In this document: piece after piece, positions 4,546 through 16,139 of the stretch
Layout: each line of letters opens with the position of its first letter
How positions within the stretch are numbered: position 1 is the first letter of the stretch
Sequence record: OQ718158.1
Source: Escherichia phage vB_Ec-M-J
Length of the DNA: 64,000 nt
Reading direction: 5' to 3' (one strand)
Translations under genes and position numbers: made by a program
Notes under the pieces: generated by a model
Databases searched by the model: none
What the model was told of the DNA's origin: nothing
Seen by the model: only the letters and a program-made list of their open reading frames with translations

Positions 4546-4557
4546 TTTAAAAAGTAC

Positions 4558-4619
4558 TTGCAAACTAAGTTTAAAGGCGTATAATACTTTATATCGAGGC
4601 GGGGAGTGGTTCCCCGCTC
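4558..4619 (+). promoter_or_regulatory. early promoter + 5' stem-loop
   Basis: TTGCAA-16-TATAAT; hairpin GAGGCGGGGAgtggTTCCCCGCTC. Confidence 0.65.
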
Positions 4620-4635
4620 AAACGAGGATTAAAAA

Positions 4636-4875
4636 ATGGCTAGTACTAAAACTTACAACGGGCACAAAAACAAAACTCATTGGAATGTTTCCTTATGGAT
4701 TAATAACGGTGAGTCATTGTATCGGCTTGCTCAAAGTTGCATCGCACAAAGTAGAACTAAAGATATTGCTGCGGAATGTATGTACCGCAGATTAAAAGCC
4801 AACGGTACTACTACAACGCCGGACGGATTCAAGTATAGCACTACGGCGATCCGTGCTGCAATGGTTGGAATGTAA
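4636..4875 (+). CDS. hypothetical early protein; paralog of 2533..2772
   Basis: track ORF; conserved N- and C-terminal blocks with 2533 gene. Confidence 0.7.
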   Translation: MASTKTYNGHKNKTHWNVSLWINNGESLYRLAQSCIAQSRTKDIAAECMYRRLKANGTTTTPDGFKYSTTAIRAAMVGM

Positions 4876-4895
4876 TATTCAGTACTGTAACAATG

Positions 4896-4920
4896 GCGGG
4901 GAATGGTTCCCGCCTTTATT
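4896..4920 (+). terminator. hairpin + T-rich tail (terminator or 5' stabiliser)
   Basis: GGCGGGGAAtggTTCCCGCC then TTTATT. Confidence 0.45.
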
Positions 4921-4933
4921 GAGGGTTTATCTA

Positions 4934-5194
4934 ATGAGTAAAGTAATTAGCTATACAGTACTAAGCAAGTCATTATCTATTAGCCAGTGCACCGATGGTT
5001 ATTGGCTATTTGATGAAACGCGTGGAATGAATTTAGCTATGCGTGCAAAAACTGCTGAGGCGGCGTATCTTGAGGCACTGGAATACTACCAGGAACGTTT
5101 AACGGAAGTAGAAGAAGATTATAAAAGCCTCAAAGCGAAAGTAGATCATTTCGTCGGTCAATTCATCGAGGAAGACGACGACAAACAATATTGA
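4934..5194 (+). CDS. hypothetical early protein (86 aa)
   Basis: start moved to ATG after RBS GAGGG; track start 4853 runs through the hairpin. Confidence 0.55.
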   Translation: MSKVISYTVLSKSLSISQCTDGYWLFDETRGMNLAMRAKTAEAAYLEALEYYQERLTEVEEDYKSLKAKVDHFVGQFIEEDDDKQY

Positions 5195-5203
5195 AAAAGT
5201 ACT

Positions 5204-5261
5204 TGCAATTAGTTTTAAGTACTGTATAATGGTTTACATCAAAGGGAGAAATGGTTCTCCC
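5204..5261 (+). promoter_or_regulatory. early promoter + 5' stem-loop
   Basis: TTGCAA-15-TATAAT; hairpin GGGAGAAatggTTCTCCC. Confidence 0.65.
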
Positions 5262-5280
5262 TGGTAATGAGGAAAATAAA

Positions 5281-5502
5281 ATGGCTAATATCACTACTCT
5301 TTCCCAACTGGAAGCACTGGTTAAATCTATGCGGGAACATGCCGACAAAATCGGCGTACAAGATCCAGCCGTTTGCTTCTGCGACGAATTGAATGATGAT
5401 ACCCTGGTAATAGCAGAAGTCCAGGACGTTTCTAACTATTCCTCGCGTTACACTGGCGGCGTAGCAAATAAAGGTGACTTCTGTTTATACCTTACAAAAT
5501 AA
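5281..5502 (+). CDS. hypothetical early protein (73 aa)
   Basis: start moved to ATG after RBS GAGG; track start 5251 lies in hairpin. Confidence 0.6.
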   Translation: MANITTLSQLEALVKSMREHADKIGVQDPAVCFCDELNDDTLVIAEVQDVSNYSSRYTGGVANKGDFCLYLTK

Positions 5503-5505
5503 CAA

Positions 5506-5537
5506 CGCGGGGAGATAATAACTCCCCGTTACTTTTT
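5506..5537 (+). terminator. rho-independent terminator candidate
   Basis: CGGGGAGataataaCTCCCCG then TTACTTTTT. Confidence 0.5.
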
Positions 5538-5608
5538 CAGTACTGAATCATTTAATAGACGGATCTCGGCACCCGGTGGGTTAGTGACTGTTTCGTCTTG
5601 ATGTAGTA

Positions 5609-5637
5609 ATTATGCCAGTACTGGATGCACTTGTCAA
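5609..5637 (-). promoter_or_regulatory. leftward promoter reading into inverted box copy
   Basis: minus strand TTGACA-17-CATAAT; GCACCCGGTGGGTTAG downstream. Confidence 0.4.
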
Positions 5638-5670
5638 CAATTATTTTTCAAATACTTTTTATTAAAATAC

Positions 5671-5725
5671 TTGCAATTAGTTTTTAAACGCGTATAATGT
5701 TTTGCATAGGGGGAGCGGTTCCCCT
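5671..5725 (+). promoter_or_regulatory. early promoter + 5' stem-loop
   Basis: TTGCAA-16-TATAAT; hairpin GGGGGAGcggTTCCCC. Confidence 0.6.
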
Positions 5726-5745
5726 GGTAACTAAGGAATAAGAAA

Positions 5746-5982
5746 ATGGTCGAACAAATCAAATCAACGTCTTCGAATGTAACGGGAACGGTAGCACACT
5801 TTACTAGTGATGAATCGCGGGGCGTTCCCTATTGTGCTGTACATGTAAACACTGAGGGTAACTACTGGTTTACGGTTTACGGATCATATTCATTTGGACG
5901 GCCAGGGCATCAAAAAATTCTGGATAAAGTACAACCAACGGGTAAAAATATCACTGCCGAAATGTTTTATAAAAAATCATAA
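5746..5982 (+). CDS. hypothetical early protein (78 aa)
   Basis: track ORF; RBS AAGGAA. Confidence 0.6.
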   Translation: MVEQIKSTSSNVTGTVAHFTSDESRGVPYCAVHVNTEGNYWFTVYGSYSFGRPGHQKILDKVQPTGKNITAEMFYKKS

Positions 5983-5987
5983 AGTAC

Positions 5988-6046
5988 TTGCAATTAGTTT
6001 TTAGTACTGTATAATATTTTACATCGCAAGGGGGAGCGGTTCCCCC
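5988..6046 (+). promoter_or_regulatory. early promoter + 5' stem-loop
   Basis: TTGCAA-16-TATAAT; hairpin GGGGGAGcggTTCCCCC. Confidence 0.6.
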
Positions 6047-6066
6047 TGGTAACTAAGGATAATCAA

Positions 6067-6366
6067 ATGAAAATTGCAATCATCGCCCTGGCTTTATCTG
6101 TTTCCTCTTTCGCTGTTAATGCGTCATTAGATGTAAGTAGTGAAAAATTCATTCAGTGCACTGTTGCAATGACCGATGAAAGAACTGGCGAGATTGTATT
6201 AAAGGATTTAGAGATCCAGCCGGAAGCATTTAAAAACGGGCCGTTCCATGAAGAAGACGAAAAAGGTAGCACGACAATTTATTACGATGCCAGTACTAAA
6301 CGCGGTTCGGTCACTGTAATGGATACTGAGAAAGTAACTCATACTGGCGTTATTAATTGCCGTTGA
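6067..6366 (+). CDS. secreted/periplasmic small protein (signal peptide)
   Basis: N-terminus MKIAIIALALSVSSFAVNA-S looks like a Sec signal peptide. Confidence 0.65.
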   Translation: MKIAIIALALSVSSFAVNASLDVSSEKFIQCTVAMTDERTGEIVLKDLEIQPEAFKNGPFHEEDEKGSTTIYYDASTKRGSVTVMDTEKVTHTGVINCR

Positions 6367-6387
6367 TAGATACTACGGGGTAACATC

Positions 6388-6618
6388 ATGACTAAGCGAA
6401 TTGTTTTACTTAACGAAAGCAGTACTACACAACTACTTAACGCCGTGCATTATGATATTGAAACGAGCGTTAATCTTATCAGTACTGTCGTACTGTTGGA
6501 CACTGGAAAGGTCGCCAATGATAAAGCGATTGCAGGTATATTAACGGATCTTGAGCCTGGTAGCAGTGCACCCATAACGTTAAATGGTAAAGTGTTTAAT
6601 ATTTTACTCACTGATTAA
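6388..6618 (+). CDS. hypothetical protein (76 aa)
   Basis: track ORF directly after 6067 gene; RBS GGGG. Confidence 0.55.
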   Translation: MTKRIVLLNESSTTQLLNAVHYDIETSVNLISTVVLLDTGKVANDKAIAGILTDLEPGSSAPITLNGKVFNILLTD

Positions 6619-6624
6619 GTACAT

Positions 6625-6650
6625 AGCCCACCTGGTGGGCTTTTTTTGTT
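6625..6650 (+). terminator. rho-independent terminator
   Basis: AGCCCACctgGTGGGCT then TTTTTTTG. Confidence 0.7.
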
Positions 6651-6701
6651 TTTGTAGTATCGTAGTACTGAGATACTTTGAAAATAGTTTTAAAAAAGTA
6701 G

Positions 6702-6729
6702 TTGACATTACCGCAGAAAAGCGTAGAAT
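6702..6729 (+). promoter_or_regulatory. sigma70-like promoter with long leader
   Basis: TTGACA-16-TAGAAT. Confidence 0.5.
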
Positions 6730-6852
6730 GTATTACATCAAGACGGGGAGCACTAAGTAGACCGCCAGTAAGTCGAACGAAAAACTGGACACGTCGAGAA
6801 AACTTTGATACACTAATAAACGTAAACTAAACTTTAATTGAGGATTTATAAA

Positions 6853-7335
6853 ATGGCTAATGTAAAATCATTCATCAAAGCACTGGTAGCAAATGAAACT
6901 AACGTCGCGGCTGAGATCCTGGCTGAACTGGATAACGATACCATGAAAGCGGTACGCAATAATTTTAACATCGCGTACAGTACTGCGAAAGAACTACAAG
7001 CAAATAAAGCGGCAGAAATTGAAGCGGCAAAGGCTGCCCGTGAAGCAGAACTACAAGCAACAATCGAAAGTATTCAGGCGGCAGTAGTTGGATTGGATCT
7101 GGAAGTAGTTACAGAGATGGCACAAAAAGCCCTGGCGGTTAAGTATGGGGAAGACAAGCCAGAAGTAAAAGCCAAAAAATGGATTCAGGAACGCGTAGCG
7201 GTAGTACTGGATAATGGGGAAGAATATCTGATTCCGGTGCGTGGTAACTGTATTGCGGTAGTACTGGACGCGATTAACGCCAGCGGTATGACTCGCGAGG
7301 AATGGATCGAATCTCATCGCAAAGTTGAAGCATAA
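6853..7335 (+). CDS. hypothetical protein, Ala/Glu/Lys-rich helical N-terminus (160 aa)
   Basis: track ORF; start moved from TTG to ATG after RBS GAGG. Confidence 0.65.
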   Translation: MANVKSFIKALVANETNVAAEILAELDNDTMKAVRNNFNIAYSTAKELQANKAAEIEAAKAAREAELQATIESIQAAVVGLDLEVVTEMAQKALAVKYGEDKPEVKAKKWIQERVAVVLDNGEEYLIPVRGNCIAVVLDAINASGMTREEWIESHRKVEA

Positions 7336-7356
7336 CAATTAAAGTACTGAATCACT

Positions 7357-7386
7357 AGCCCACTGTATAAGTGGGCTTTTTTGTGT
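7357..7386 (+). terminator. rho-independent terminator
   Basis: AGCCCACtgtataaGTGGGCT then TTTTTTG. Confidence 0.7.
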
Positions 7387-7393
7387 TTATCGT

Positions 7394-7500
7394 TTACCAG
7401 GCCACCAGCACCGCCTAGAAACGATTCTAACGTATTAAACTGTTTATCTGATGCATTGCCCTAGCTGGTGGCGTGAAGGTCGTTAGAATGCGATTGAGAG
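7394..7500. repeat. long imperfect inverted repeat
   Basis: CCACCAGC..GCTGGTGG and CGATTCTAACG..CGTTAGAATGCG arms; CGTTAGAATGCG also at ~1486 and ~11794. Confidence 0.45.
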
Positions 7501-7536
7501 CGTTTAAAGTATTTTGCAAAAAGTAATAAAAAGTAC

Positions 7537-7597
7537 TTGCACGATTAAGAGATTAGCGTATAATGTTTTACATCGAGAGGGGGAAACGGTTCTCCTT
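7537..7597 (+). promoter_or_regulatory. early promoter + 5' stem-loop
   Basis: TTGCAC-16-TATAAT-GTTTTACATC; hairpin GGGGGAAacggTTCTCC. Confidence 0.6.
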
Positions 7598-7619
7598 CCA
7601 AATCAAAGGAATCAAAACA

Positions 7620-7847
7620 ATGGCTATCGTAATCACTCGCGTAACTGGTACTACTGGCAATTCTTCTACTGTTGCTGTAATTACTAATAAGAAAGGTGCG
7701 GAATTGCATTTTGCAATGGATAAATGGGCCGTTAATGAGTTCGGTCAGTGGGCAAGTGTAGCATACATTGAAACCTATCAAGTGCCGTCGATTAGTTTAA
7801 CTGATTTGGGCGTTGAGCGTATCCTTTGCCTTGATGAATTAAATTAA
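7620..7847 (+). CDS. hypothetical early protein (75 aa)
   Basis: start moved to ATG after RBS AAGGA; track start 7563 lies in promoter. Confidence 0.65.
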   Translation: MAIVITRVTGTTGNSSTVAVITNKKGAELHFAMDKWAVNEFGQWASVAYIETYQVPSISLTDLGVERILCLDELN

Positions 7848-7853
7848 AAAAGT

Positions 7854-7914
7854 ACTTGCAAAGTAAATCGAATAAAGTATAATACATTACATCAAGGGGA
7901 GAAATGGTTCTCCC
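7854..7914 (+). promoter_or_regulatory. early promoter + 5' stem-loop
   Basis: TTGCAA-18-TATAAT; hairpin GGGGAGAAatggTTCTCCCC. Confidence 0.6.
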
Positions 7915-7932
7915 CACTACAAGGAAACTAAA

Positions 7933-8076
7933 ATGAAAACTTGTCAATGTGGTCAGAAATCTATTACGGGTTTAAAGCGGGGCGTTGCTCTTTGCCAGTA
8001 CCATTATAATTTACAAGTATGGGGTAAAGAATGGGCCGACCAGGTGGAAGCAGCAAAGAAAGCAAAAAGTAAGTAA
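7933..8076 (+). CDS. small Cys/His-containing protein (47 aa), not in ORF track
   Basis: ATG after RBS AAGGAA; CQCG...LCQYH could bind metal. Confidence 0.5.
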   Translation: MKTCQCGQKSITGLKRGVALCQYHYNLQVWGKEWADQVEAAKKAKSK

Positions 8077-8094
8077 AATATTATCACAGTACTA

Positions 8095-8123
8095 TTGACA
8101 TAGTTTGATAGTACTGGCATAAT
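8095..8123 (+). promoter_or_regulatory. class-B early promoter
   Basis: ATTATCACAGTACTATTGACA-17-CATAAT; same cassette at 8389, 11231, 11502, 19423. Confidence 0.6.
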
Positions 8124-8156
8124 AGATTTTATCAAGACAACTAAGAGGAAACAATA

Positions 8157-8369
8157 ATGGCTATCATCACAAAAATCAAAGTTAACAAATCACTGGTTAA
8201 ACTTGAACAAGTGAAAGCAGGTTATAAAGTATCGTGGTGCGGTATGTATCGGATGTTCACCGATATAGACAATGCAATCAAGTACTACACTGACACCGTT
8301 GCCTCATTCGTTCGTGCTGATGTGGTTATGGCAGTGGCAACGCACAAAGCAGCGAAAGAAAGTAAGTAA
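8157..8369 (+). CDS. hypothetical early protein (70 aa)
   Basis: track ORF; RBS AAGAGGAAA. Confidence 0.65.
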   Translation: MAIITKIKVNKSLVKLEQVKAGYKVSWCGMYRMFTDIDNAIKYYTDTVASFVRADVVMAVATHKAAKESK

Positions 8370-8388
8370 AAATATTATCACAGTACTA

Positions 8389-8417
8389 TTGACATAGTTT
8401 GATAGTACTGGCATAAT
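8389..8417 (+). promoter_or_regulatory. class-B early promoter
   Basis: TTGACA-17-CATAAT, near-identical to 8095 copy. Confidence 0.6.
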
Positions 8418-8458
8418 AGATTTTATCAAGACAACATATTAATTTAAGGAATACAAAA

Positions 8459-8782
8459 ATGGCTAAAACTATCATTAACACCGTTTCCCTGGCTGCAATC
8501 CGTGCAATCAATGTTGACGGTAAACGTTGGACTGATTCATATGGCAATACTTATCATTCTTGTCATGTAAGCGTTGAACTGGATAACGGTTTGAATGATC
8601 TGGCGGTTGAATCATTTACTTATGGCTATGAAGATGCATATCAACAAACGGCGTTATCTCTCTTAAAGGAATCAGTAGACGGGCTTAATACTGATGAAAC
8701 CTCCCTTACTCGTGTGTGCAATGATCTTAATATCCCGTTGCATTGTACTGTACAGAATGTTAAACGCAAAAAAGATCTTTAA
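8459..8782 (+). CDS. hypothetical early protein; paralog of 14956..15279
   Basis: track ORF; shares RWTDS(Y/H)GNTYHSC.VS...FTYGY...KRKKD with 14956 gene. Confidence 0.7.
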   Translation: MAKTIINTVSLAAIRAINVDGKRWTDSYGNTYHSCHVSVELDNGLNDLAVESFTYGYEDAYQQTALSLLKESVDGLNTDETSLTRVCNDLNIPLHCTVQNVKRKKDL

Positions 8783-8861
8783 TTAGCTTTACTTTATGCA
8801 GATACTTTGATATAGTGTCTGCATAGGGGAAAGAAATTAAACTACTTAAGAGGATCGTATA

Positions 8862-9131
8862 ATGAAAAATATCAGTACTTTAATCGATGCAGGTACTCAT
8901 GTTCGTCGGTCTATGGTTGCAACCAGTACTACAAAACAAGTAGCGAGCGGTTATCTTGTATTTGTGCACGATGGTAAACTCCTGGAACGTTCAATCAATT
9001 TTGATGTTAAAAACAATTGCCGTTTTATTATCTTTAAGCGTGAGCAATATAAAATTGATTTACCAGCAAAGCCCATTAGTGGGGCGTACAACGTGCAATC
9101 ATTGTTTGAACGTCAACCATACACCTATTAA
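8862..9131 (+). CDS. hypothetical protein (89 aa)
   Basis: track ORF; RBS AAGAGGA. Confidence 0.55.
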   Translation: MKNISTLIDAGTHVRRSMVATSTTKQVASGYLVFVHDGKLLERSINFDVKNNCRFIIFKREQYKIDLPAKPISGAYNVQSLFERQPYTY

Positions 9132-9182
9132 TCAAAACATCGTTAGCGGTCGATTCAGGCCGCTTATATTGGGGATTATACC

Positions 9183-9455
9183 ATGAACGTTAATCAAGTA
9201 CTGAATGAGATCGAAAGCATCATTAAACCGATGAAGCGTACTGATGCTATGTTAACACCGGAAGAATGCCGCCTTTATGAGCGTTACAGCGTCGAACAAG
9301 TCCAGGCAATGGCTATGGCTACCCCAGCCGTTAAACCGCCTGAGAATGCGTTACAGGACGTTACAGGGGATTATATCATCAATCCAGTACTAGGGAAGAT
9401 GGCTGCAATCACCGAAGATCAACAAGACTACTTAAGCCAGTACTTAAAAGGTTAA
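9183..9455 (+). CDS. hypothetical protein (90 aa)
   Basis: track ORF; RBS GGGGA. Confidence 0.55.
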   Translation: MNVNQVLNEIESIIKPMKRTDAMLTPEECRLYERYSVEQVQAMAMATPAVKPPENALQDVTGDYIINPVLGKMAAITEDQQDYLSQYLKG

Positions 9456-9460
9456 TTAAT

Positions 9461-9670
9461 ATGCTTACTGTACAGGATAAGATCGACATCTTAAAGGTTA
9501 ATATGTATGTGATTGATGCAGTACCTGGTAAAGTATTTGCCTACGATGACACCACTGTAAGCGATTTCTACTATAGCCAGGCCGTGGGGGATCTTTCTGT
9601 ACAGTCGGTTATTGAAAACGTAGTTAATGCAGCGTATGAGCATTTACTTTCAAATAGTACTTGCAATTAG
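9461..9670 (+). CDS. hypothetical protein (69 aa)
   Basis: track ORF; 3' end runs into next promoter -35. Confidence 0.5.
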   Translation: MLTVQDKIDILKVNMYVIDAVPGKVFAYDDTTVSDFYYSQAVGDLSVQSVIENVVNAAYEHLLSNSTCN

Positions 9671-9720
9671 TTTTTAAACGCGTATAATGTTTTACATGAA
9701 GGGGAGAAATGATTCTCCCC
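9661..9720 (+). promoter_or_regulatory. early promoter + 5' stem-loop
   Basis: TTGCAA-16-TATAAT; hairpin GGGGAGAAatgaTTCTCCCC. Confidence 0.6.
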
Positions 9721-9739
9721 ACTAATTAAGGAATATGAA

Positions 9740-9886
9740 ATGAAAGCATCAAAAAAGAGTACTAACAAGAAAGCACGTTCAACCTTAGATGGGGTATTCC
9801 CTTTACGTTTCGTTGATGAAGTGGTTTCCTACCCGCCTGGCCTTACTCCTGAGATGGTAGAAAGTTTGCGTAAATCTAAAAAATAG
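9740..9886 (+). CDS. small basic protein (48 aa), not in ORF track
   Basis: ATG after RBS AAGGAA following promoter-hairpin. Confidence 0.5.
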   Translation: MKASKKSTNKKARSTLDGVFPLRFVDEVVSYPPGLTPEMVESLRKSKK

Positions 9887-9889
9887 TAC

Positions 9890-9949
9890 TTGCAATTAGT
9901 TTTTAGTACTGTATAATGTTTTACATGAAGGGGAGAAATGATTCTCCCC
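9890..9949 (+). promoter_or_regulatory. early promoter + 5' stem-loop
   Basis: TTGCAA-16-TATAAT; hairpin GGGGAGAAatgaTTCTCCCC. Confidence 0.6.
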
Positions 9950-9967
9950 AATAACAGGAGAAACAAA

Positions 9968-10120
9968 ATGAAACAATACAACGCTCGGTTTGATGTTACT
10001 ATCGGTAACGGCAAAGGTCAATTCTCTTTCAGTACTCGCAAAAGTTATACAGAAAACTTCCTGCGTAATTGTGCACTGACCGCCGCACAAATTAAACATT
10101 ACTTTCAGGCTAAAAAATGA
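9968..10120 (+). CDS. hypothetical small protein (50 aa)
   Basis: start moved to ATG after RBS AGGAG. Confidence 0.55.
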   Translation: MKQYNARFDVTIGNGKGQFSFSTRKSYTENFLRNCALTAAQIKHYFQAKK

Positions 10121-10206
10121 AATCATTAGCTTACTATAGTTCTGCGGTGATCGGTGCATTGATCGCGGCGTTGTTAGTAACCTATCTATTCTTTATGGTG
10201 ATTTAA
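10117..10206 (+). CDS. small hydrophobic peptide (29 aa, one predicted TM helix)
   Basis: ATGA overlap with upstream stop; MKSLAYYSSAVIGALIAALLVTYLFFMVI. Confidence 0.4.
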   Translation: MKSLAYYSSAVIGALIAALLVTYLFFMVI

Positions 10207-10350
10207 ATGAATCCAACAGGTTTAAACTATAAAAGTTGTTCGGCGTTTACGAAAGCAAATAAAGCGAATGCACGTAAAGCGAAAGTACAGGAATACATCA
10301 AGCAAGGCATGACGCGAAAAGCGGCGATTATAAAAGCTAAAAATAAATGA
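10207..10350 (+). CDS. small Lys/Ala-rich basic protein (47 aa)
   Basis: ATG immediately after upstream TAA. Confidence 0.4.
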   Translation: MNPTGLNYKSCSAFTKANKANARKAKVQEYIKQGMTRKAAIIKAKNK

Positions 10351-10440
10351 AAAAAGTGGTTGACTCCGGTCAGCCATTTTGCTATTATATATTCATTGAG
10401 AGATAGCTCACTAGCCCACAGGGTGCATAAGTGTATCTAT
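10351..10440 (+). promoter_or_regulatory. composite element: terminator-like hairpin overlapping promoter, then conserved box
   Basis: AAAAAGTGGTTGACtccgGTCAGCC; TTGACT-17-TATTAT; TAGCCCACAGGGTGCATAAGTGTATCTAT. Confidence 0.55.
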
Positions 10441-10481
10441 TATATGAGTATTGAGTACTGAAAACTATTTTTAAAAAGTAC

Positions 10482-10541
10482 TTGCAAACTATCTCAATAA
10501 GCGTATAATGTTTTACATCGAGAGGGGGAAACGGTTTCCCC
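10482..10541 (+). promoter_or_regulatory. early promoter + 5' stem-loop
   Basis: TTGCAA-16-TATAAT-GTTTTACATC; hairpin GGGGGAAacggTTTCCCC. Confidence 0.65.
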
Positions 10542-10561
10542 TGGTAATAAGGAAACAAATC

Positions 10562-10903
10562 ATGACTATCTCAATTGCTCAATCTAACTTTGAAAATGAA
10601 ATCATCGCCCAGGCACTGCGTTTAAATGATGGTCGGGCCGAAATTAATTACGGTTTCAATTCAGGCGGTTGCGAAAACTATCAGTACTTTGTAACGGCTG
10701 ATGGCGGTGTCCTGGGTATCAATACAGTTATTGTAAACATCCAAAAAATTAATTTCAATGATCCAGACGATAGCCAGTTTTACATCACTGGCGTAGACGT
10801 GAACTATGAGGATGACTCACTAACTGATGATCACACTGGCGAGCGGTTAGAAAGTGCATACGGTGAAGATGATTATCAGTCCGGTCCAGAAGATTTCGAA
10901 TAA
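10562..10903 (+). CDS. hypothetical acidic protein (113 aa)
   Basis: start moved to ATG after RBS AAGGAA. Confidence 0.65.
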   Translation: MTISIAQSNFENEIIAQALRLNDGRAEINYGFNSGGCENYQYFVTADGGVLGINTVIVNIQKINFNDPDDSQFYITGVDVNYEDDSLTDDHTGERLESAYGEDDYQSGPEDFE

Positions 10904-10916
10904 TATAAAAAATAGT

Positions 10917-10976
10917 TTGACAATAGATTATAGTACTGTATAATTAATTACATCAAGGGGAGAAAAACTTCTCCCC
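10917..10976 (+). promoter_or_regulatory. early promoter + 5' stem-loop
   Basis: TTGACA-16-TATAAT; hairpin GGGGAGAAaaacTTCTCCCC. Confidence 0.65.
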
Positions 10977-10998
10977 ACTAACAGAGAGAGAAAACAAA

Positions 10999-11211
10999 AT
11001 GGCTAATATCCGGTCGAAATTAAAAAATGCAAAACAAGTTTTATTTTCAGATCATGAATACTTTAATAAAGATATTACAGGAGTTACAAGTATCAAGGAA
11101 GTAAAAGAAAAAACCGGCGTTTTGTGTGATGTGCGATTAGTTGGGACATTTGGGAATAACGTGCTATATCGCTGCGGTGATTACAATTTTACACTGACTA
11201 TCATTAACTAA
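10999..11211 (+). CDS. hypothetical early protein (70 aa)
   Basis: track ORF; RBS GAGAGAGA. Confidence 0.6.
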   Translation: MANIRSKLKNAKQVLFSDHEYFNKDITGVTSIKEVKEKTGVLCDVRLVGTFGNNVLYRCGDYNFTLTIIN

Positions 11212-11230
11212 AAATATTATCACAGTACTA

Positions 11231-11259
11231 TTGACATAGTTTGATAGTACTGACATAAT
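11231..11259 (+). promoter_or_regulatory. class-B early promoter
   Basis: TTGACA-17-CATAAT. Confidence 0.55.
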
Positions 11260-11294
11260 AACTTTTATCAACTACACTACTAAGGAATTAAAAA

Positions 11295-11474
11295 ATGGCT
11301 ATCATCGCAAAAACTGAAATCGTTGGTCTGGATTCTATCATCATGACGTTTGAAGATCAAAAAGGTATGTATGTAGTTTCCTATGGTGATTATGTTCGGG
11401 AGTATGAAACGGTAGACGAAGCCTTTGAAAGTTATATTCGCCAGGTGAATAAAGCATACGACGACTACCGCTAA
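11295..11474 (+). CDS. small protein (59 aa), not in ORF track
   Basis: ATG after RBS AAGGAA downstream of class-B promoter. Confidence 0.5.
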   Translation: MAIIAKTEIVGLDSIIMTFEDQKGMYVVSYGDYVREYETVDEAFESYIRQVNKAYDDYR

Positions 11475-11501
11475 AATATATTACCAGTACTATTAAATCT
11501 A

Positions 11502-11529
11502 TTGACAACGTTTGATAGTACTGTATAAT
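11502..11529 (+). promoter_or_regulatory. class-B early promoter
   Basis: TTGACA-16-TATAAT. Confidence 0.55.
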
Positions 11530-11573
11530 AAGTTTTATAAACAGTAGTTAACTTAACCTAAGAGAGAAACAAA

Positions 11574-11717
11574 ATGATCGCACTGGATTCATTCATCGAC
11601 GCAGTACTGGCAAAAACTGGCGAGGATCTGACCGCAGAACAATACGCGATGATCGAGCAATGTCAGCAAAACGGTAAATCGGTGAAAGATACTGTTAAGA
11701 TTATCCGCAAGATGTAA
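11574..11717 (+). CDS. small protein (47 aa), not in ORF track
   Basis: ATG after RBS AAGAGAGAAA. Confidence 0.5.
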   Translation: MIALDSFIDAVLAKTGEDLTAEQYAMIEQCQQNGKSVKDTVKIIRKM

Positions 11718-11723
11718 TATTAT

Positions 11724-11752
11724 AGCCCACTGGTTAACGCTGGTGGGCTTTA
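11724..11752 (+). terminator. terminator-like hairpin
   Basis: AGCCCACtggttaacgctgGTGGGCT then TTTAAT. Confidence 0.45.
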
Positions 11753-11816
11753 ATCATTTACCCTATACAATGCCAGTACTAAACCGTTTATCTCGTTAGA
11801 ATGCGTTACAGGACGT

Positions 11817-12020
11817 TTGACAATGATTAGCATGAAATCAGTACAAAAACAAATAGAAACATTATCAAAAATTAAACGTAAACAATACTCGTTAGAATAT
11901 ACAATCAATGGTAACTATCATCTAATGAAAGAAAATAATTTTATAGTCATTGATGAATCATTGCAAGTTATTAGTATAGTACTGAAAGCATTAATTAATG
12001 ATAGAAAAAAATTAAAATAA
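11817..12020 (+). CDS. hypothetical protein (67 aa), AT-rich
   Basis: track ORF; no clear RBS or promoter. Confidence 0.4.
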   Translation: MTMISMKSVQKQIETLSKIKRKQYSLEYTINGNYHLMKENNFIVIDESLQVISIVLKALINDRKKLK

Positions 12021-12023
12021 TTG

Positions 12024-12052
12024 TTGACATACAATGCCAGTACTGGCATAAT
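12024..12052 (+). promoter_or_regulatory. sigma70-like promoter upstream of box and GATC cluster
   Basis: TTGACA-17-CATAAT. Confidence 0.5.
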
Positions 12053-12077
12053 ACTTACATCAAGACGAGAACGTCAC

Positions 12078-12106
12078 TAACCCATAGGGTGCACAAATGT
12101 AACTAT
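12078..12106 (+). promoter_or_regulatory. conserved box copy
   Basis: TAACCCATAGGGTGCACAAATGTAACTAT. Confidence 0.45.
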
Positions 12107-12110
12107 ATAA

Positions 12111-12190
12111 TATCGATCAATAAATGATCAAAAAAGTACTGGATCAATTTAGCATAAGGAGTATAATTCTGATCAATTCTTGATCAAAGG
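12111..12190. repeat. cluster of five GATCAA repeats
   Basis: cGATCAAtaaatGATCAAaaaagtactgGATCAAttt..ctGATCAAttcttGATCAAagg. Confidence 0.6.
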
Positions 12191-12348
12191 CAATATACGC
12201 AGTTGAATTTATATAGACAGTACAAAGGCGTTACTATCCGTGGTAATGCTGATGGATATGTAGTATCATACGGTTTGAATAAGATAAGCACTAGTAGTAT
12301 TATTGTAGCATTACAGTACTATAGTATTTTTATAATGAGGTTAAAATA

Positions 12349-12606
12349 ATGGCTGTTGGATTCGCGAAGGACGGGGCCGAGCAAGACGAGATTAACGCAG
12401 TTATTCAGGCCGCTGTAAACCACGCTAGAACGCAAATTAACGCACAAATAGAATCACTGATACATTGCCTCGACTGTGGCGATAAAATCCCTGAGAATCG
12501 CCGCCAGGTCGTTAAGGGGTGTAAGTACTGTATCACTTGCCAGGAGGATCATGATAGTACTTTTAAACGTCAACCGCGTAATTGTTGGCATAGATCTATG
12601 AGATAA
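12349..12606 (+). CDS. TraR/DksA-family C4 zinc-finger protein
   Basis: C-x2-C-x15-C-x2-C-x2-C (HCLDCGDKIPENRRQVVKGCKYCITCQ), typical of TraR/DksA zinc fingers. Confidence 0.7.
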   Translation: MAVGFAKDGAEQDEINAVIQAAVNHARTQINAQIESLIHCLDCGDKIPENRRQVVKGCKYCITCQEDHDSTFKRQPRNCWHRSMR

Positions 12607-12612
12607 AAAGTA

Positions 12613-12640
12613 TTGACAGTACTATCCAGTAGTGTATAAT
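12613..12640 (+). promoter_or_regulatory. early promoter
   Basis: TTGACA-16-TATAAT-GTTTTATATC. Confidence 0.55.
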
Positions 12641-12669
12641 GTTTTATATCTTAACTGAGGATAGAAATC

Positions 12670-13026
12670 ATGGGAATACAACATATCACGCGTACTACTG
12701 ACAATGGCGAGATCACTGGCTATCAAGTACAGGGCAAAGTAGCACAATTGCAGTACTGGTTTGTTAAACGTGGAATCATTGCACCGGATCTTGATTATGA
12801 CCGTGTAGCGTTTATTGATTCTCTTTATGTTGATCCTGATAGTCGGGGGAATGGTGAAGGTAACGAATTAATGAATGCCTTTATTGATGCCGCCGATGAT
12901 TCAGATTGTATCATCTTAGAATGCGATACGGGAGAAGATAACGCCTTTAATCTTAAAGAATGGTATGAAGGTTTCGGATTCGAGGTACTGATCGATAGTG
13001 AATATCCTATCATGATTTTATCATAG
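12670..13026 (+). CDS. GNAT-like acetyltransferase (putative)
   Basis: acetyl-CoA motif A-like VDPDSRGNGEGNELMNAF (R-x-x-G-x-G) and C-terminal Y..GFGFE. Confidence 0.5.
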   Translation: MGIQHITRTTDNGEITGYQVQGKVAQLQYWFVKRGIIAPDLDYDRVAFIDSLYVDPDSRGNGEGNELMNAFIDAADDSDCIILECDTGEDNAFNLKEWYEGFGFEVLIDSEYPIMILS

Positions 13027-13028
13027 TA

Positions 13029-13089
13029 CTTGCATTTAGTTTTCAGTACTGTATAATAGTTTACATGAAGGGGAGAATAGTTCTCCCCA
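13029..13089 (+). promoter_or_regulatory. early promoter + 5' stem-loop
   Basis: TTGCAT-17-TATAAT; hairpin GGGGAGAAtagTTCTCCCC. Confidence 0.6.
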
Positions 13090-13105
13090 CTACAAGGAAA
13101 GACAA

Positions 13106-13294
13106 ATGGAAAACTTATCAAGTATTTTAGTACAAGATGATTTCGGTAATCCTGGAAGTGCTATCATTGTTCGGGGTAATAAAGCAACGTTTGTTATTGC
13201 TGGTGGACCCGTACAGCGTAGCATTAAAAATAATGCTGTTACCATTAATAATGTACGCTATCGCTTAGATAAAGAATTAATTCATAAACTGTAA
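13106..13294 (+). CDS. hypothetical early protein (62 aa)
   Basis: track ORF; RBS AAGGAAAGA. Confidence 0.6.
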   Translation: MENLSSILVQDDFGNPGSAIIVRGNKATFVIAGGPVQRSIKNNAVTINNVRYRLDKELIHKL

Positions 13295-13302
13295 AAAAGT
13301 AC

Positions 13303-13363
13303 TGGACAATAGATTATAGTACTGTATAATAAGTTACATGAAGGGGAGAAAATGATTCTCCCC
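13303..13363 (+). promoter_or_regulatory. early promoter + 5' stem-loop
   Basis: TGGACA-16-TATAAT; hairpin GGGGAGAAaatgaTTCTCCCC. Confidence 0.55.
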
Positions 13364-13380
13364 ACTAAGAGGAAAGAAAA

Positions 13381-13593
13381 ATGCAAGGTCAACTAATCGT
13401 TCGTAAATGGTCTGATACTAACGCTAAACCGTGGGATGTACAATACATCGCCCCCAATGGTGAATCCAGATATCAACCAGGTGTAACGCATAGTACTGAG
13501 CAATTCGCCGCCGCTCATCGTGAACGTCTGTTACAATCAATGCAGCAAGGTTTCGGTGAAAAATTCATTCAGGATCATTGGCTGAAAGATTAA
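13381..13593 (+). CDS. hypothetical early protein (70 aa)
   Basis: track ORF; RBS AAGAGGAAAG. Confidence 0.6.
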   Translation: MQGQLIVRKWSDTNAKPWDVQYIAPNGESRYQPGVTHSTEQFAAAHRERLLQSMQQGFGEKFIQDHWLKD

Positions 13594-13600
13594 AAAGTTC

Positions 13601-13660
13601 TTGCACAGTACTGAATAAAGTGTATAATGTTTTATATCGAGAGGGGAATAGTTCCCCTCC
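13601..13660 (+). promoter_or_regulatory. early promoter + 5' stem-loop
   Basis: TTGCAC-16-TATAAT; hairpin GAGGGGAAtagTTCCCCTC. Confidence 0.6.
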
Positions 13661-13679
13661 TAACAAAAAGGAAAGTATA

Positions 13680-13853
13680 ATGATCCAAGTAGAATTATCA
13701 GTACTGAAAGATCTATTTTATCGGTTAGGTACTAATGGCGAGTATCCTAAAAGTGATACCGCAAAACTTTTTGTATCACTCGACTTATGGCAACGCGAAC
13801 AATTAGTAATGTCGTGGCGTAAAGGTAAAGCAGATCGCGAGGTGAAAGCATGA
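13680..13853 (+). CDS. hypothetical early protein (57 aa)
   Basis: start moved to ATG after RBS AAGGAAAG; track start 13578 is a TTG in the promoter. Confidence 0.55.
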   Translation: MIQVELSVLKDLFYRLGTNGEYPKSDTAKLFVSLDLWQREQLVMSWRKGKADREVKA

Positions 13854-13999
13854 AAGAATTCTTATTTGAAGTAGTGTTTCAAGGTGTCGGTAGTAACCAA
13901 CTGATTCGCTCAAGTGGTTACAATGTTAACCAGGCATGGAATAACATTAAACAAATGTACCCGAACGCTATCACATATCGCAACCCGAAAGAAGTTTAA
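13850..13999 (+). CDS. small protein (49 aa), not in ORF track
   Basis: ATGA overlap with upstream stop; coordinates +/-1. Confidence 0.4.
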   Translation: MKEFLFEVVFQGVGSNQLIRSSGYNVNQAWNNIKQMYPNAITYRNPKEV

Positions 14000-14005
14000 A
14001 AATAA

Positions 14006-14092
14006 TTGAAAAAGGGATTGACTCCGGTCAGTCCCTTTGCTATTATATACGCATAGAAACAAATTAGCCCACCGGGTGCATAAATGTATCTA
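14006..14092 (+). promoter_or_regulatory. composite element: hairpin/promoter + conserved box
   Basis: AAAAAGGGATTGACtccgGTCAGTCCC; TTGACT-17-TATTAT; TAGCCCACCGGGTGCATAAATGTATCTAT. Confidence 0.55.
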
Positions 14093-14146
14093 TTGTTTGC
14101 TGGTGGCTAGTACTATCAAGTACTGAAAACTATTTTTAAAAAGTAC

Positions 14147-14174
14147 TTGCAAAGTATCACGATAAGCGTATAAT
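14147..14174 (+). promoter_or_regulatory. early promoter (long leader)
   Basis: TTGCAA-16-TATAAT-GTTTTACATC. Confidence 0.6.
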
Positions 14175-14262
14175 GTTTTACATCAGGACGGGGAACGAAA
14201 CAAGTAACCCCGTTAAGTAGTCCAGGAGTAAGACATACGAAAAACTCCCCTGATAAAATAGT
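14175..14262 (+). promoter_or_regulatory. structured leader, second copy of 3721..3810
   Basis: near-identical sequence to 3721..3810. Confidence 0.5.
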
Positions 14263-14290
14263 TTGACAATAGAAAGTAAACGAGTATAAT
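14263..14290 (+). promoter_or_regulatory. second (tandem) promoter before 14324 gene
   Basis: TTGACA-16-TATAAT. Confidence 0.5.
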
Positions 14291-14323
14291 ACTTACATCA
14301 ACCACTGATAAGGAAACATTAAA

Positions 14324-14599
14324 ATGCGGATTCTACTGACAGCTAACGAAATCGAACAAGTACTGACTACTAACCTGGAAGACTGGAAACGTGAAGCAGA
14401 TATCCAGGCGGTTCAATGGCTTAATGATAAGTTAACGCCGGATGATTTAAGTAAGATTGTAGATCCTCAATTCTACGAAGATATTCACGACACCGCGTTA
14501 AGCGTCGAGGATGTACTTGATAAGCACTACATTGATACTGATTTACATGTTTACGGTCGTAAAAACTTTATCACTATTCACGACATTTACAATACTTAA
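14324..14599 (+). CDS. hypothetical early protein (91 aa)
   Basis: track ORF; RBS AAGGAAA. Confidence 0.65.
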   Translation: MRILLTANEIEQVLTTNLEDWKREADIQAVQWLNDKLTPDDLSKIVDPQFYEDIHDTALSVEDVLDKHYIDTDLHVYGRKNFITIHDIYNT

Positions 14600-14602
14600 G
14601 TA

Positions 14603-14662
14603 TTGACAAAGTATCTTAGTACTGTATAATAGTTTACATCGAGAGGGGAAACGGTTCCCCTC
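14603..14662 (+). promoter_or_regulatory. early promoter + 5' stem-loop
   Basis: TTGACA-16-TATAAT; hairpin GAGGGGAAacggTTCCCCTC. Confidence 0.65.
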
Positions 14663-14685
14663 CTAACAAAGAGAGAGAAATAAAA

Positions 14686-14868
14686 ATGGCTAAGTGCACT
14701 ATCTGCAAGAAAGAAATAGTATTAGTTCCAAGTGCCCGTGAACGTGCCGCTCGGTTTGGTGGCAAAGCGTCAGACTATACAAAAATGTTTACTGCCCATA
14801 CAGCTTGCCAGGTAGCAAAACGTTCACAAGAAAGCGTAGAATTAATGCGTAAACTTTCCAAAAAATAA
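14686..14868 (+). CDS. small basic protein with CxxC..C (60 aa)
   Basis: track ORF; MAKCTICKK...HTACQ. Confidence 0.6.
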   Translation: MAKCTICKKEIVLVPSARERAARFGGKASDYTKMFTAHTACQVAKRSQESVELMRKLSKK

Positions 14869-14871
14869 GTA

Positions 14872-14931
14872 TTGACAAAGTATCTTAGTACTGTATAATA
14901 GTTTACATCAAGCGAGGGGAATGGTTCCCCT
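14872..14931 (+). promoter_or_regulatory. early promoter + 5' stem-loop
   Basis: TTGACA-16-TATAAT; hairpin GAGGGGAAtggTTCCCCTC. Confidence 0.65.
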
Positions 14932-14955
14932 CCTAACAAAGAGAGAGAAATAAAA

Positions 14956-15279
14956 ATGGCTATGATCCTTACCCAGAAAGTAGAACTGAAAATTGTAACC
15001 TCCTTTGACATTAACGTTAATCGGTGGACTGATTCACACGGCAATACTTACCACTCTTGCTACGTGTCTGCGTTAATTGGCGACCGCTGGGAAGACCTGG
15101 GACACGAAACCTTTACATACGGTTACGGTACACAAGGCGAATACACGGGCTTGGAGATCATTAAAGAAACCGTTATAGGTTTCAACCCGAAAGAAAAAGT
15201 TATTCACCGCATCGAGGAAGAGATCAACAAAGAAATAACAGTTCGATACAACGATGTAAAACGTAAGAAAGACATGTAA
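14956..15279 (+). CDS. hypothetical early protein; paralog of 8459..8782
   Basis: track ORF; conserved RWTDSHGNTYHSC block. Confidence 0.7.
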   Translation: MAMILTQKVELKIVTSFDINVNRWTDSHGNTYHSCYVSALIGDRWEDLGHETFTYGYGTQGEYTGLEIIKETVIGFNPKEKVIHRIEEEINKEITVRYNDVKRKKDM

Positions 15280-15301
15280 TAGAATCCATTTAAAGTACTA
15301 T

Positions 15302-15330
15302 TTGACATTGCCCAGATAGTACTTTATAAT
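15302..15330 (+). promoter_or_regulatory. sigma70-like promoter
   Basis: TTGACA-17-TATAAT. Confidence 0.55.
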
Positions 15331-15374
15331 AGACTCTAACTTGTAGTACTAACTCAACTAATAGGATGTATACC

Positions 15375-15770
15375 ATGATTACTAAATTCTACGCTACCCG
15401 TGAAGCTGCCCGTATTGTTGCACGCGAGGAAGGAGCAGCATTTAAAGACATGGGCAAAGATGCACCGAAAGGTCAACGCTGGGCCGTACAGTTCAAAGAA
15501 ATCTCTGATATTGTGAATTCACCTGAGCCAGTACTGACAGCAGCAGAACTAAAACGAGCGGATATGCTGGCGGCAATACTTGACGCACAAGATGAGTTTA
15601 TCGCTGATTCTGATATCAAAGTACAGGTAAACCACACCGCATGGACTCACGCGGATCACCTGGCAAACCTTAAGCGTCCAAGTGAACTGATTCGCAACCA
15701 GAAAGAGATCCGACACGACCGTAAGGGTAATCGTGTAACAGTATACAGTAAACGCCGCCAGGTTATCTAA
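15375..15770 (+). CDS. hypothetical early protein; paralog of 2861..3127
   Basis: start moved to ATG aligning with paralog (MITKFYATRE); track start 15366 is also possible. Confidence 0.6.
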   Translation: MITKFYATREAARIVAREEGAAFKDMGKDAPKGQRWAVQFKEISDIVNSPEPVLTAAELKRADMLAAILDAQDEFIADSDIKVQVNHTAWTHADHLANLKRPSELIRNQKEIRHDRKGNRVTVYSKRRQVI

Positions 15771-15800
15771 TAACTTGCAGTACTAACAACACGGCGGGAT

Positions 15801-15826
15801 CAGTTCCCGCCTTTTTTATAGGACAA
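15801..15826 (+). terminator. rho-independent terminator
   Basis: GGCGGGAtcagtTCCCGCC then TTTTTTAT. Confidence 0.7.
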
Positions 15827-15831
15827 ACAAC

Positions 15832-16086
15832 ATGATTAAGGTTCAACTATCAAACGATAATGTATTACGGGTACACTATAAAGCACCTCAGAGAATCATC
15901 ACAAAGGCCGTACAGCTTGCTAATGAGTTTATTAATGGTAACCTATTACCTAGGAAGTTAAGCAACGGGAAACTGCGTGTAATCGACGTGGACACTAACA
16001 ACAGGATAGTAATCGAGAACACAGGAAAGATAAACCTTTATGAGCATCAACAATACAATAAGAAAATAAAACTAATATCACGTTGA
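15832..16086 (+). CDS. hypothetical protein (84 aa)
   Basis: track ORF; RBS AGGA. Confidence 0.55.
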   Translation: MIKVQLSNDNVLRVHYKAPQRIITKAVQLANEFINGNLLPRKLSNGKLRVIDVDTNNRIVIENTGKINLYEHQQYNKKIKLISR

Positions 16087-16112
16087 CAGTACTCAATTGT
16101 TTTAGTACTATG
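16084..16112 (+). promoter_or_regulatory. promoter (leader duplicated at 16359)
   Basis: TTGACA-17-TACTAT; GTACTCAA.TGTTTTAGTACTAT conserved in both copies. Confidence 0.45.
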
Positions 16113-16139
16113 TACACATACCAACACGGGAGAAACAAA

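Follow-up and report, generated by a model that had tools for sequence, protein, structure and literature searches.

A multi-copy, promoter-linked non-coding element in the direct terminal repeat of Rak2-like jumbo phages

We describe a short conserved box that recurs in a stretch of 64,000 nucleotides from Escherichia phage vB_Ec-M-J (OQ718158.1), hereafter the window; the focal copy lies at 10353-10440. The box is real: a non-coding unit, linked to a promoter and strongly conserved, that occurs solely in the direct terminal repeat (DTR) of the phage. Its 5' hairpin covaries, and its core region is under strand-specific constraints. We infer that it is transcribed by the host polymerase upon DNA entry and works as an RNA. 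The mechanism that we tentatively infer is that of a multi-copy immediate-early small RNA, whose invariant core would bind one conserved partner in trans. Judged by the comparisons below, the box is an undescribed, clade-wide RNA-type motif of the Rak2-like phages, absent from Rfam and from the searchable literature.

Between 9 and 12 kb the window is 91-98% identical to Asteriusvirus jumbo coliphages (Turkey5, fEgEco12, G17, phAPEC6 and PBECO4 relatives). Its base 1 aligns with base 1 of fEgEco12, whose direct terminal repeats of 20,993 bp have been confirmed experimentally (PMC13070987). From this match, the window represents the left-hand 64 kb of a jumbo coliphage of the Asteriusvirus (PBECO4/121Q) type, and its first ~21 kb form the DTR. 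The layout of the DTR resembles that of a host-takeover module, with small, strongly promoted genes, nearly every one behind a strong promoter of its own, and all annotated genes lie on the + strand. The region is full of small open reading frames without relatives (ORFans), and its 9-12 kb part appears plastic, since relatives align to it in two to five pieces spread across 3.5-8 kb.

Copies of the box and their promoters

A preliminary description of this DNA had proposed a conserved box of ~29 bp at several places on both strands. The full 29-mer has four matches at no more than three mismatches (3527, 10412, 14065 and 20096), where none is expected. The 12-nt core CCCAYNGGGTGC, allowing one mismatch, has 10 matches compared with 0.28 expected, all at the places that had been proposed: six on the + strand, starting at 3530, 10415, 12081, 14068, 17348 and 20099, and four on the - strand (1100-1111, 1316-1327, 3587-3598 and 5569-5580). 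Only this core and a Y-R-Y-C-Y segment 7 nt downstream are constrained or invariant; the remainder of the 29 bp differs among copies, which refines the box as first drawn. A sequence-only covariance model, built from the window and RaK2 copies, added one partial + copy (1264-1291, 13.6 bits). With either of two covariance models no match was found between 20.2 and 64 kb, and all window copies thus lie inside the ~21-kb DTR.

Long duplicated flanks are shared by the copies at 10415 and 17348, and by those at 14068 and 20099. Across copies and genera, however, the flanks, the promoter class and the hairpin stems vary whilst the core is identical, so duplication of flanking sequence, which had been named as a possible explanation, fails to account for the box.

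The unit is widespread in one phage clade. A search with the promoter-plus-box composite returned 85 phage records, all of them Rak2-like jumbo phages except for rV5-like phages that matched the second promoter only. The exact 12-mer occurs in the early or DTR regions of RaK2 (8 copies), GAP32 (11), CBB (11), fENko-Kae01 (8), Serratia BF (5) and Erwinia pEa_SNUABM_12 (5), and the box unit 5-13 times per matching region of RaK2, GAP32, CBB, fENko-Kae01 and Serratia BF. The two covariance models found 79 and 97 copies in the loci searched (six Rak2-like phages from five lineages, and related metagenomic contigs). All copies fall within the annotated repeat in CBB (DTR 1-22,456) and fENko-Kae01 (DTR 1-19,736). 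An exact-pattern scan of IMG/VR recovered only genomes or fragments apparently of the Rak2-like clade.

Searches elsewhere were negative. No box was found in 7-24 kb of the PA5oct terminal repeat (best model score 5.3 bits) or in 5,426 complete E. coli genomes. A GTDB scan gave 70 single matches in unrelated taxa, none in Enterobacterales, which is at chance level and came with weak partial scores under the structural model. Neither identity nor complementarity of the box to the rrnH operon (16S, 23S, 5S and operon tRNAs) was above chance. Mimicry of a host stable RNA, or an antisense to one, was rejected on these rrnH and E. coli genome results. Rfam 15 gave no gathering-level match in the 64 kb; at E <=5 over 1-22 kb there were two unrelated weak matches only, Trp_leader (at a terminator) and S15. 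No known RNA family, tRNA or transfer-messenger RNA was found that could be the box. A literature search found the motif mentioned nowhere. Promoters are not discussed in the RaK2 genome paper, and the accessible part of the CBB paper lists RpoD-like promoters, among which the box does not figure.

All 10 window copies have a sigma70-like promoter on their own strand, scoring at least 9 of 12, with 21-28 nt from the end of its -10 hexamer to the core. For promoters and for what lies downstream, the statistics cover 30 copies from three genera (window, RaK2 and CBB). In 28 of these the core begins 21-29 nt past a same-strand -10, compared with 9.7% of random positions. The preliminary description was right to place each copy behind such a promoter. 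The usual form is TTGAC(A/T)-17-(C/T)AT(A/T)AT with a TG extension. Alignment of the copies reveals a conserved CAT ~7 nt past the -10, the A of which is the likely transcript start; counted from there, the box would span ~+15 to +50 of the transcript that its strong sigma70 promoter is predicted to give. A terminator-like hairpin, AAAGGGATTGACTCCGGTCAGTCCCTTT, lies over the -35 at four + copies (10353-10380, 14011-14038, 17286-17313 and 20042-20069), as had also been noticed; the other six have no such stem-loop.

In the focal unit the hairpin AAAGTGGTTGAC-TCCG-GTCAGCCATTTT (10353-10380, +) closes the upstream gene with a 12-pair stem and a T-rich tail, and overlaps the -35 of the promoter TTGACT-17-TATTAT with its TG extension (10360-10388, +). 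From a predicted start at A10395, in the conserved CAT, the + transcript would run through a 5' hairpin, H1 (UGAG-AGAUAG-CUCA, 10397-10410), which covaries among copies, and a CUAG linker into the invariant core CCCACAGGGTGC (10415-10426). The core holds both strands of one short helix, A (R-CCC/GGG-U), and the 5' strand, GGGUG, of another, B. A variable 6-nt spacer (ATAAGT), the 3' strand of helix B (GTATCT) and a final AT follow at 10427-10440, where the conserved unit ends.

The remaining + units share this plan. Unit 12081+ (12024-12106, core 12081-12092) has the promoter TTGACA-17-CATAAT and an H1 stem GACG/CGUC. Three have hairpin-overlapped promoters: 14068+ (14011-14093, core 14068-14079), which is without H1 and has an E. 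coli Chi sequence at 14099; 17348+ (17286-17373, core 17348-17359), with the H1 stem GAG/CUC; and 20099+ (20042-20124, core 20099-20110), also without H1, the last copy, ~0.9 kb from the expected right edge of the DTR. Unit 3530+ (3476-3555, core 3530-3541; TTGACT-17-CATAAT, H1 GGC/GCC) is the left half of a convergent pair, the right half of which, 3587- (3573-3648, core 3587-3598; TTGACA-17-CATAAT), has no H1 and shows the +57 geometry also seen in CBB.

On the - strand, unit 5569- (5555-5637, core 5569-5580) has the promoter TTGACA-17-CATAAT and an H1 stem GAC/GUC; a bidirectional terminator at 5508-5528, 52 nt downstream, predicts a stand-alone RNA of ~100 nt. Two further units face the left genome end: 1316- (1302-1383; TTGACT-16-TATAAT, H1 CGC/GCG, core CCCAGAGGGTGC at 1316-1327) and 1100- (1086-1167; TTGCTT-16-TATAAT, H1 AGUC/GACU, core 1100-1111). 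The partial + copy at 1264-1291 consists of the 3' half only (AGGGTGCGGGAGTGTATCCT) and then T7; its helix B and T run form an intrinsic-terminator-like site that faces unit 1316-.

Box transcripts do not lead into genes in any regular way. No Shine-Dalgarno (SD) sequence with an ATG was found within ~90 nt of the 30 copies. Eight of them stand in convergent pairs, in which the complement of the partner core begins 57 nt after the core, in Asteriusvirus and Mimasvirus alike, leaving a 45-nt spacer between cores (window 3530/3598; CBB 1008/1076, 3818/3886 and 20840/20908). The CBB pairs are perfect inverted repeats of at least 15 bp. CBB, BF and fENko-Kae01 each have a convergent pair ~1 kb from the end of the genome, and a further CBB pair lies ~1.5 kb from the inner repeat edge. 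Single copies on the - strand meet a bidirectional terminator 46-73 nt on, giving predicted RNAs of ~100 nt (window 5569-, RaK2 16294- and 23362-, and CBB 10245-, the last with a weak AT-rich stem), and for single + copies the next feature is a second promoter, at +49 to +91. Approximately 40% of units lie on the - strand and point away from all genes or toward the genome end. The units ~1.1-1.3 kb from the left end head no - strand gene, even when the context of the right-hand repeat is included. Since the unit is intergenic in both orientations and runs into another promoter, a terminator or a convergent copy of itself, it is orientation-independent and non-coding, and is not an mRNA leader. 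The - copies were also considered as promoters of - strand genes at the end of the unique region, and this was rejected as the fEgEco12 genes there are on the + strand.

The promoters closest to the genes differ from those of the box, reading TTGCAA or TTGACA-16-TATAAT, and 11 of them are perfect 12/12 consensus promoters. With their leaders they make up another repeated family (window 1677-19771; one example is 10482-10562), whose transcripts begin CAUC(R)AG-GGGGAGAAnnGUUCUCCCC, with a GC-rich hairpin, and continue into an SD sequence and ATG. This gene-proximal promoter-plus-leader also matches rV5-like phages (Justusliebigvirus and relatives).

Structure and constraint within the transcribed segment

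H1 occurs with at least 18 distinct stems of 3-5 bp, including GAG/CUC, GGC/GCC, GACG/CGUC, AGUC/GACU, CGC/GCG, CCA/UGG, AGCA/UGCU, ACCG/CGGU and ACCAC/GUGGU, around similar purine-rich loops (GNGAAA, AGAACAA or AGAUAA). Each of the three modelled pairs shows double-sided changes, in 37-46 of ~83 sequences, and covariation scored 0.457 compared with 0.236 for shuffled alignments, with none of 500 shuffles as high, in an alignment that was itself fitted to the model. A chimera test is independent of that alignment: native 5' and 3' halves gave a mean of -2.57 versus -1.26 kcal/mol, and none of 2000 permutations was as low. Both results indicate that the H1 hairpin is genuine.

The core is essentially invariant, R-CCC-AYN-GGGUGC, and is followed by the spacer and then by Y-R-Y-C-Y. 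The spacer is variable in sequence and fixed at 6 nt, with no indels in 79 copies. Helix A, R-CCC with GGG-U, is 97.8% paired, its closing R being A or G opposite an invariant U. The loop that it closes usually has 3 nt (AYN); Eneladusvirus-type copies, CCCUAUAGGG among them, have 4 nt there, a tolerated 1-nt insertion within the core. The first G changes to A only together with a C-to-U change opposite (CCU...AGG), in CBB and Yersinia phage fHe-Yen9-04. Helix B, GGGUG with Y-R-Y-C-Y, is 90-92% paired, compared with 21-75% for controls with slid partners. Its 3' strand exists in at least 11 kinds, including UAUCU, CGUCU, CGCCC, CGUCC, UGUCC and UACCU. These differ by transitions only, preserving G-U/G-C or U-A/U-G pairs, whereas adjacent columns show many transversions. 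The GAP32 core variant GGAUGC is compatible with helix B and not with helix A.

The G-U pairing of the box holds on the sense strand only. This wobble pattern, together with the tolerated insertion, argues for constraint at the level of RNA rather than of duplex DNA. Past helix B the consensus reads AUAAUAUA and has no U tract, so the box does not look like an intrinsic terminator, the sole exception being the partial copy at 1264-1291. We also considered a general long-range helix between the 5' region (AGAUA, AUAGA or AGACG) and the 3' strand. Although it appears in several minimum free energy (MFE) folds, native pairs were no better than permuted ones (478/2000) and it was rejected as a general feature; such a helix may be restricted to the subfamily with AGAUAA loops.

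Candidate functions

Three roles had been offered for the box at the outset: a short RNA, an operator, or a promoter for a phage-specific polymerase. The short RNA is the best supported by its position behind a promoter, the covariation of H1, the G-U/G-C-preserving changes in the 3' strand, the 3-4-nt loop and the lack of an open reading frame (ORF). The operator has been weakened and the phage promoter has fallen, as set out below.

In the mechanism that we tentatively favour, E. coli RNA polymerase would make a short non-coding RNA from a strong sigma70 promoter in the DTR, with the box as the body of the RNA. The transcript would start at the A of CAT, usually form H1 and continue into R-CCC-AYN-GGGUGC, where GGG(U) would pair either back to (R)CCC (helix A) or forward to Y-R-Y-C-Y (helix B). 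From ~10 copies per repeat (~20 per genome), RNA of 50-100 nt would flood the cell early in infection. The invariant core is the putative binding site of one partner, most likely a phage or host protein, and the RNA would act in trans as a decoy or cofactor, with H1 and helix B protecting its ends. We favour an RNA acting in trans because the units are independent of orientation, those on the - strand are stand-alone and terminated, read-through is not needed when each DTR gene has its own promoter, and copy number behind strong promoters is high. A more specific version, which we regard as possible but doubtful, is that ~20 promoter-driven copies of a ~50-nt bistable RNA titrate or reprogram a conserved host factor in the opening minutes of infection, as a takeover device or anti-defence decoy, or else modify the host RNA polymerase in cis in the manner of put, with convergent pairs as collision terminators that set RNA length.

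Known systems offer partial parallels. Long direct terminal repeats with tiny genes behind very strong host-type promoters are familiar from the T5 pre-early region and the SPO1 terminal redundancy, and the DTR described here is likewise packed with tiny genes behind strong host-type promoters; we know of no multi-copy conserved non-coding unit in either of those modules. Of the features expected of a gene for a trans-encoded small RNA, a promoter of its own and the lack of an ORF hold for all box copies, and a terminator within 46-73 nt for the - singles but not for the + copies. The terminal repeat of the Pseudomonas jumbo phage PA5oct encodes two non-coding RNAs, ncRNA001 and ncRNA002, single-copy transcripts of 236-451 nt that RNA-seq found highly expressed throughout infection (PMC7318152). 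They provide a precedent for abundant repeat-encoded non-coding RNAs in a distant relative, and the DTR described here is likewise predicted to give non-coding transcripts. The PA5oct RNAs are however larger, single-copy, without the box and unrelated.

Several points weigh against a small RNA acting in trans. The start sites, 3' ends and abundance of the box RNA are all predicted. Dispersal in 10-20 copies is unusual for a trans-acting small RNA and typical of cis sites. The + copies lack a terminator of their own, and for this reason may amount to no more than an extended 5' leader for the gene that comes next. When 40 ORFs of the terminal repeat were scanned against Pfam, no recognised RNA-binding protein was found; the matches were a DksA/TraR zinc finger, GNAT, ParE-like, DUF7249 and a weak kinase only. 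H1 is missing in three of the ten window copies and is therefore auxiliary. The alignment and covariation check that had been suggested succeeds for H1 but cannot prove the fold of the core: because the core is invariant, neither helix A nor helix B is provable by covariation, and both are compatible with the variation seen. As both use the same GGG, the two helices are also mutually exclusive; the core segment may be bistable or may refold during transcription. Thermodynamic z-scores of -0.1 to -2.4 are unremarkable and MFE folds differ among copies.

The rival that survives best, though we think it rather unlikely, is a cis-acting element in the nascent RNA that would affect its own polymerase by pausing, termination or read-through. 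The lambda nut sites and HK022 put RNA are cis-acting antitermination RNAs just downstream of early promoters. Like them, the box is promoter-proximal, is present in several copies per genome, as is normal for cis sites, and sets a small purine-loop hairpin with a free stem beside a conserved segment. In a mechanism of this kind, for which our confidence is similarly low, H1 and the CCC:GGG hairpin would emerge at ~+35 to +45 and bind polymerase or recruit a factor, and helices A and B would form an attenuator-like switch. The fixed position right behind the promoter fits this, as do the pair of short hairpins, one of them boxB-like in that its loop is purine-rich and GNRA-like and its stem covaries freely, and the mutual exclusion of A and B. 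So does an elemental-pause-like spacing with G at -10, U at -1 and G at +1 (columns 36, 45 and 46). Also in its favour are the terminator-like site made by helix B and T7 in the partial copy at 1264, U-rich runs soon past helix B in several copies of other genera, and intrinsic terminators downstream of some + copies (at 4895, 5507, 6625, 7357 and 15793).

Much speaks against such a cis element. Approximately 40% of copies face away from all genes or toward the genome end, and many have no downstream operon; nearly all genes have a strong promoter of their own, making read-through unneeded. The boxA consensus (CGCUCUUUA-like) is absent from the box alignments, the H1 loops of 6-8 nt (GNGAAA, AGAACAA) are only loosely boxB-like, and the box is about half the size of put. 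Past helix B there is AUAAUAUA rather than a U tract, and the helices are merely 3-6 bp. Pfam scans of the terminal-repeat ORFs detected no N- or Q-like protein, and neither the nut nor the put family gave an Rfam match in the window.

A DNA operator is unlikely. Under this reading a phage or host protein would bind duplex CCCAYNGGGTGC and GTATCT to block or trap RNA polymerase, and H1 would be a general 5' stabiliser of early transcripts. H1 need not belong to the box, because other early transcripts also begin with a hairpin. The 12-mer is invariant in five lineages, its spacing to the second segment is always 6 nt without indels, the location at +15 to +45 suits a roadblock, and the convergent pairs are long inverted repeats in DNA. 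Yet dyad symmetry is confined to CCC/GGG, Eneladusvirus copies tolerate a 1-nt insertion in the core, and the site is always co-oriented with its promoter. An operator also leaves unexplained why changes in the second segment are restricted to transitions, all preserving wobble on one strand, when its flanks carry transversions. The preliminary description had proposed looking for a DNA-binding protein gene, and no candidate emerged from the Pfam scans of the 40 terminal-repeat ORFs.

More improbable still is a recombination or replication cassette, by which small ORFs would be shuffled, or which would act as a transcription-primed origin or hot spot through G-rich RNA beside AT-rich DNA (R-loops). 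The model for shuffling is the PeSL (promoter-early stem-loop) cassette of T4-like phages, which joins an early promoter close to the sigma70 consensus to a terminator stem-loop and is dispersed among the small ORFans of a plastic early region (PMC2839356, PMC4122927). Four of the ten window copies (10353, 14011, 17286 and 20042) have this terminator-plus-promoter architecture. The abundance of small ORFans, the alignment of close relatives in two to five pieces over longer spans, the long duplicated flanks (10415/17348 and 14068/20099), a repeat packed with Chi sites and a G-rich non-template strand, GGGTGCGGAG, right behind a strong promoter would all agree with such a role. PeSLs, however, have no conserved transcribed segment, whereas here the transcribed box is the invariant part and stands in both orientations, also behind promoters without a stem-loop. 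Recombination does not require a cross-genus invariant 12-mer with adjoining covarying stems, and many copies have AUAA instead of a G-rich spacer.

A promoter for a phage polymerase or sigma factor, or a mini-ORF start with an SD-like GGGUG and NUG-UAU-CUA-stop, is highly improbable: copies are absent outside the terminal repeat, from the 20-64 kb interval and ahead of middle or late genes, each already lies behind a host-type promoter and ~40% point away from genes, and although many Asteriusvirus and RaK2 copies have GUG, AUG or UUG 5 nt past GGGUGC, then UAU CUA and a stop, the start position reads AUC, UUA, GCA and so on in many copies of other genera. A mini-ORF or leader peptide was rejected because neither a start codon nor frame length is conserved across genera.

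Other features of the terminal repeat and significance

The Pfam-matched proteins of the terminal repeat are a DksA/TraR C4 zinc finger (12349-12606), a GNAT acetyltransferase (12670-13026), a ParE-like toxin domain (15832-16086), two DUF7249 paralogues (2533-2772 and 4636-4875) and a weak match to a protein kinase (16633-17274). The DksA/TraR C4 zinc-finger gene lies directly downstream of box unit 12081+, and its product is likely to be a binder of the RNA polymerase secondary channel.

No ORF in the terminal 1.7 kb (window 1-1700) is convincing. Present in this part are a + promoter (TTGACA-17-TATAAT, ~367-400), short words that recur at ~780-920 (GGCTAGAT and GACGGCTAAA), a site resembling a terminator (1264-1290) and, on the opposite strand, isolated copies of a variant of the box 3' segment (TTTTGGGCGTA at ~735 and TTTTGGACGTA at ~760). 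A long non-coding + transcript from this region is possible. Window 1020-1319 (-) corresponds to g614 of fEgEco12, annotated as a 99-aa gene; this ORF has a GTG start, overlaps both 1100- and 1316-, and is probably a spurious gene call. The sequence ATAGTTCCCCtaccgcgtGGGGATAG at 945-975 is similar to the type I-E CRISPR repeat of E. coli (GTTCCCC-N8-GGGGATA), and ATAGTTCCCCT occurs as a word twice near it, at about 1579 and about 1626. From sequence likeness this could be a solitary CRISPR-repeat-like unit or a coincidence.

The window has 12 sites for E. coli Chi, GCTGGTGG, compared with 0.48 expected. Eleven of these sites, nine of them on the + strand, are in the terminal repeat (588-, 600+, 7402-, 7464+, 11739+, 13199+, 14099+, 16454+, 18356+, 19935+ and 20157+, spanning 588-20164), with an inverted pair ~600 bp from the left end, and one is in the other 44 kb. 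Chi is likewise enriched in the DTR or early regions of RaK2, GAP32, CBB, fENko-Kae01 and BF (6-14 each, mostly on the + strand). This enrichment suggests that the repeat has a role in taming RecBCD or in recombination. The first 21 kb contain 140 copies of the palindrome AGTACT, often as CAGTACTG, where composition predicts 6.8; the remaining 43 kb contain 118, where it predicts 14.4. Nearly every early promoter has the palindrome immediately 5' of its -35 and of its -10 hexamer, and it also stands 15-25 nt past many boxes. It may be a phage-specific promoter element or the site of a regulator.

Rak2-like jumbo phages are widely isolated for therapy, and more than 80 genomes match the composite, yet their ~20-kb repeats are annotated only as strings of hypothetical proteins. 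The terminal repeat also carries a conserved non-coding element that gene callers have missed or, as in fEgEco12 g614, mis-called. The element is invariant across genera infecting Escherichia, Klebsiella, Cronobacter, Pectobacterium, Serratia, Erwinia and Yersinia. Its strict conservation, its ~20 copies per genome and its strong promoters make it likely to matter in early infection, and the 12-nt core offers a handle for pull-downs, mutagenesis and RNA-seq on host takeover. Should it turn out to act as an RNA decoy, or as an RNA that modifies the polymerase, it would be a new case on the very short list of RNA-based phage takeover tools.

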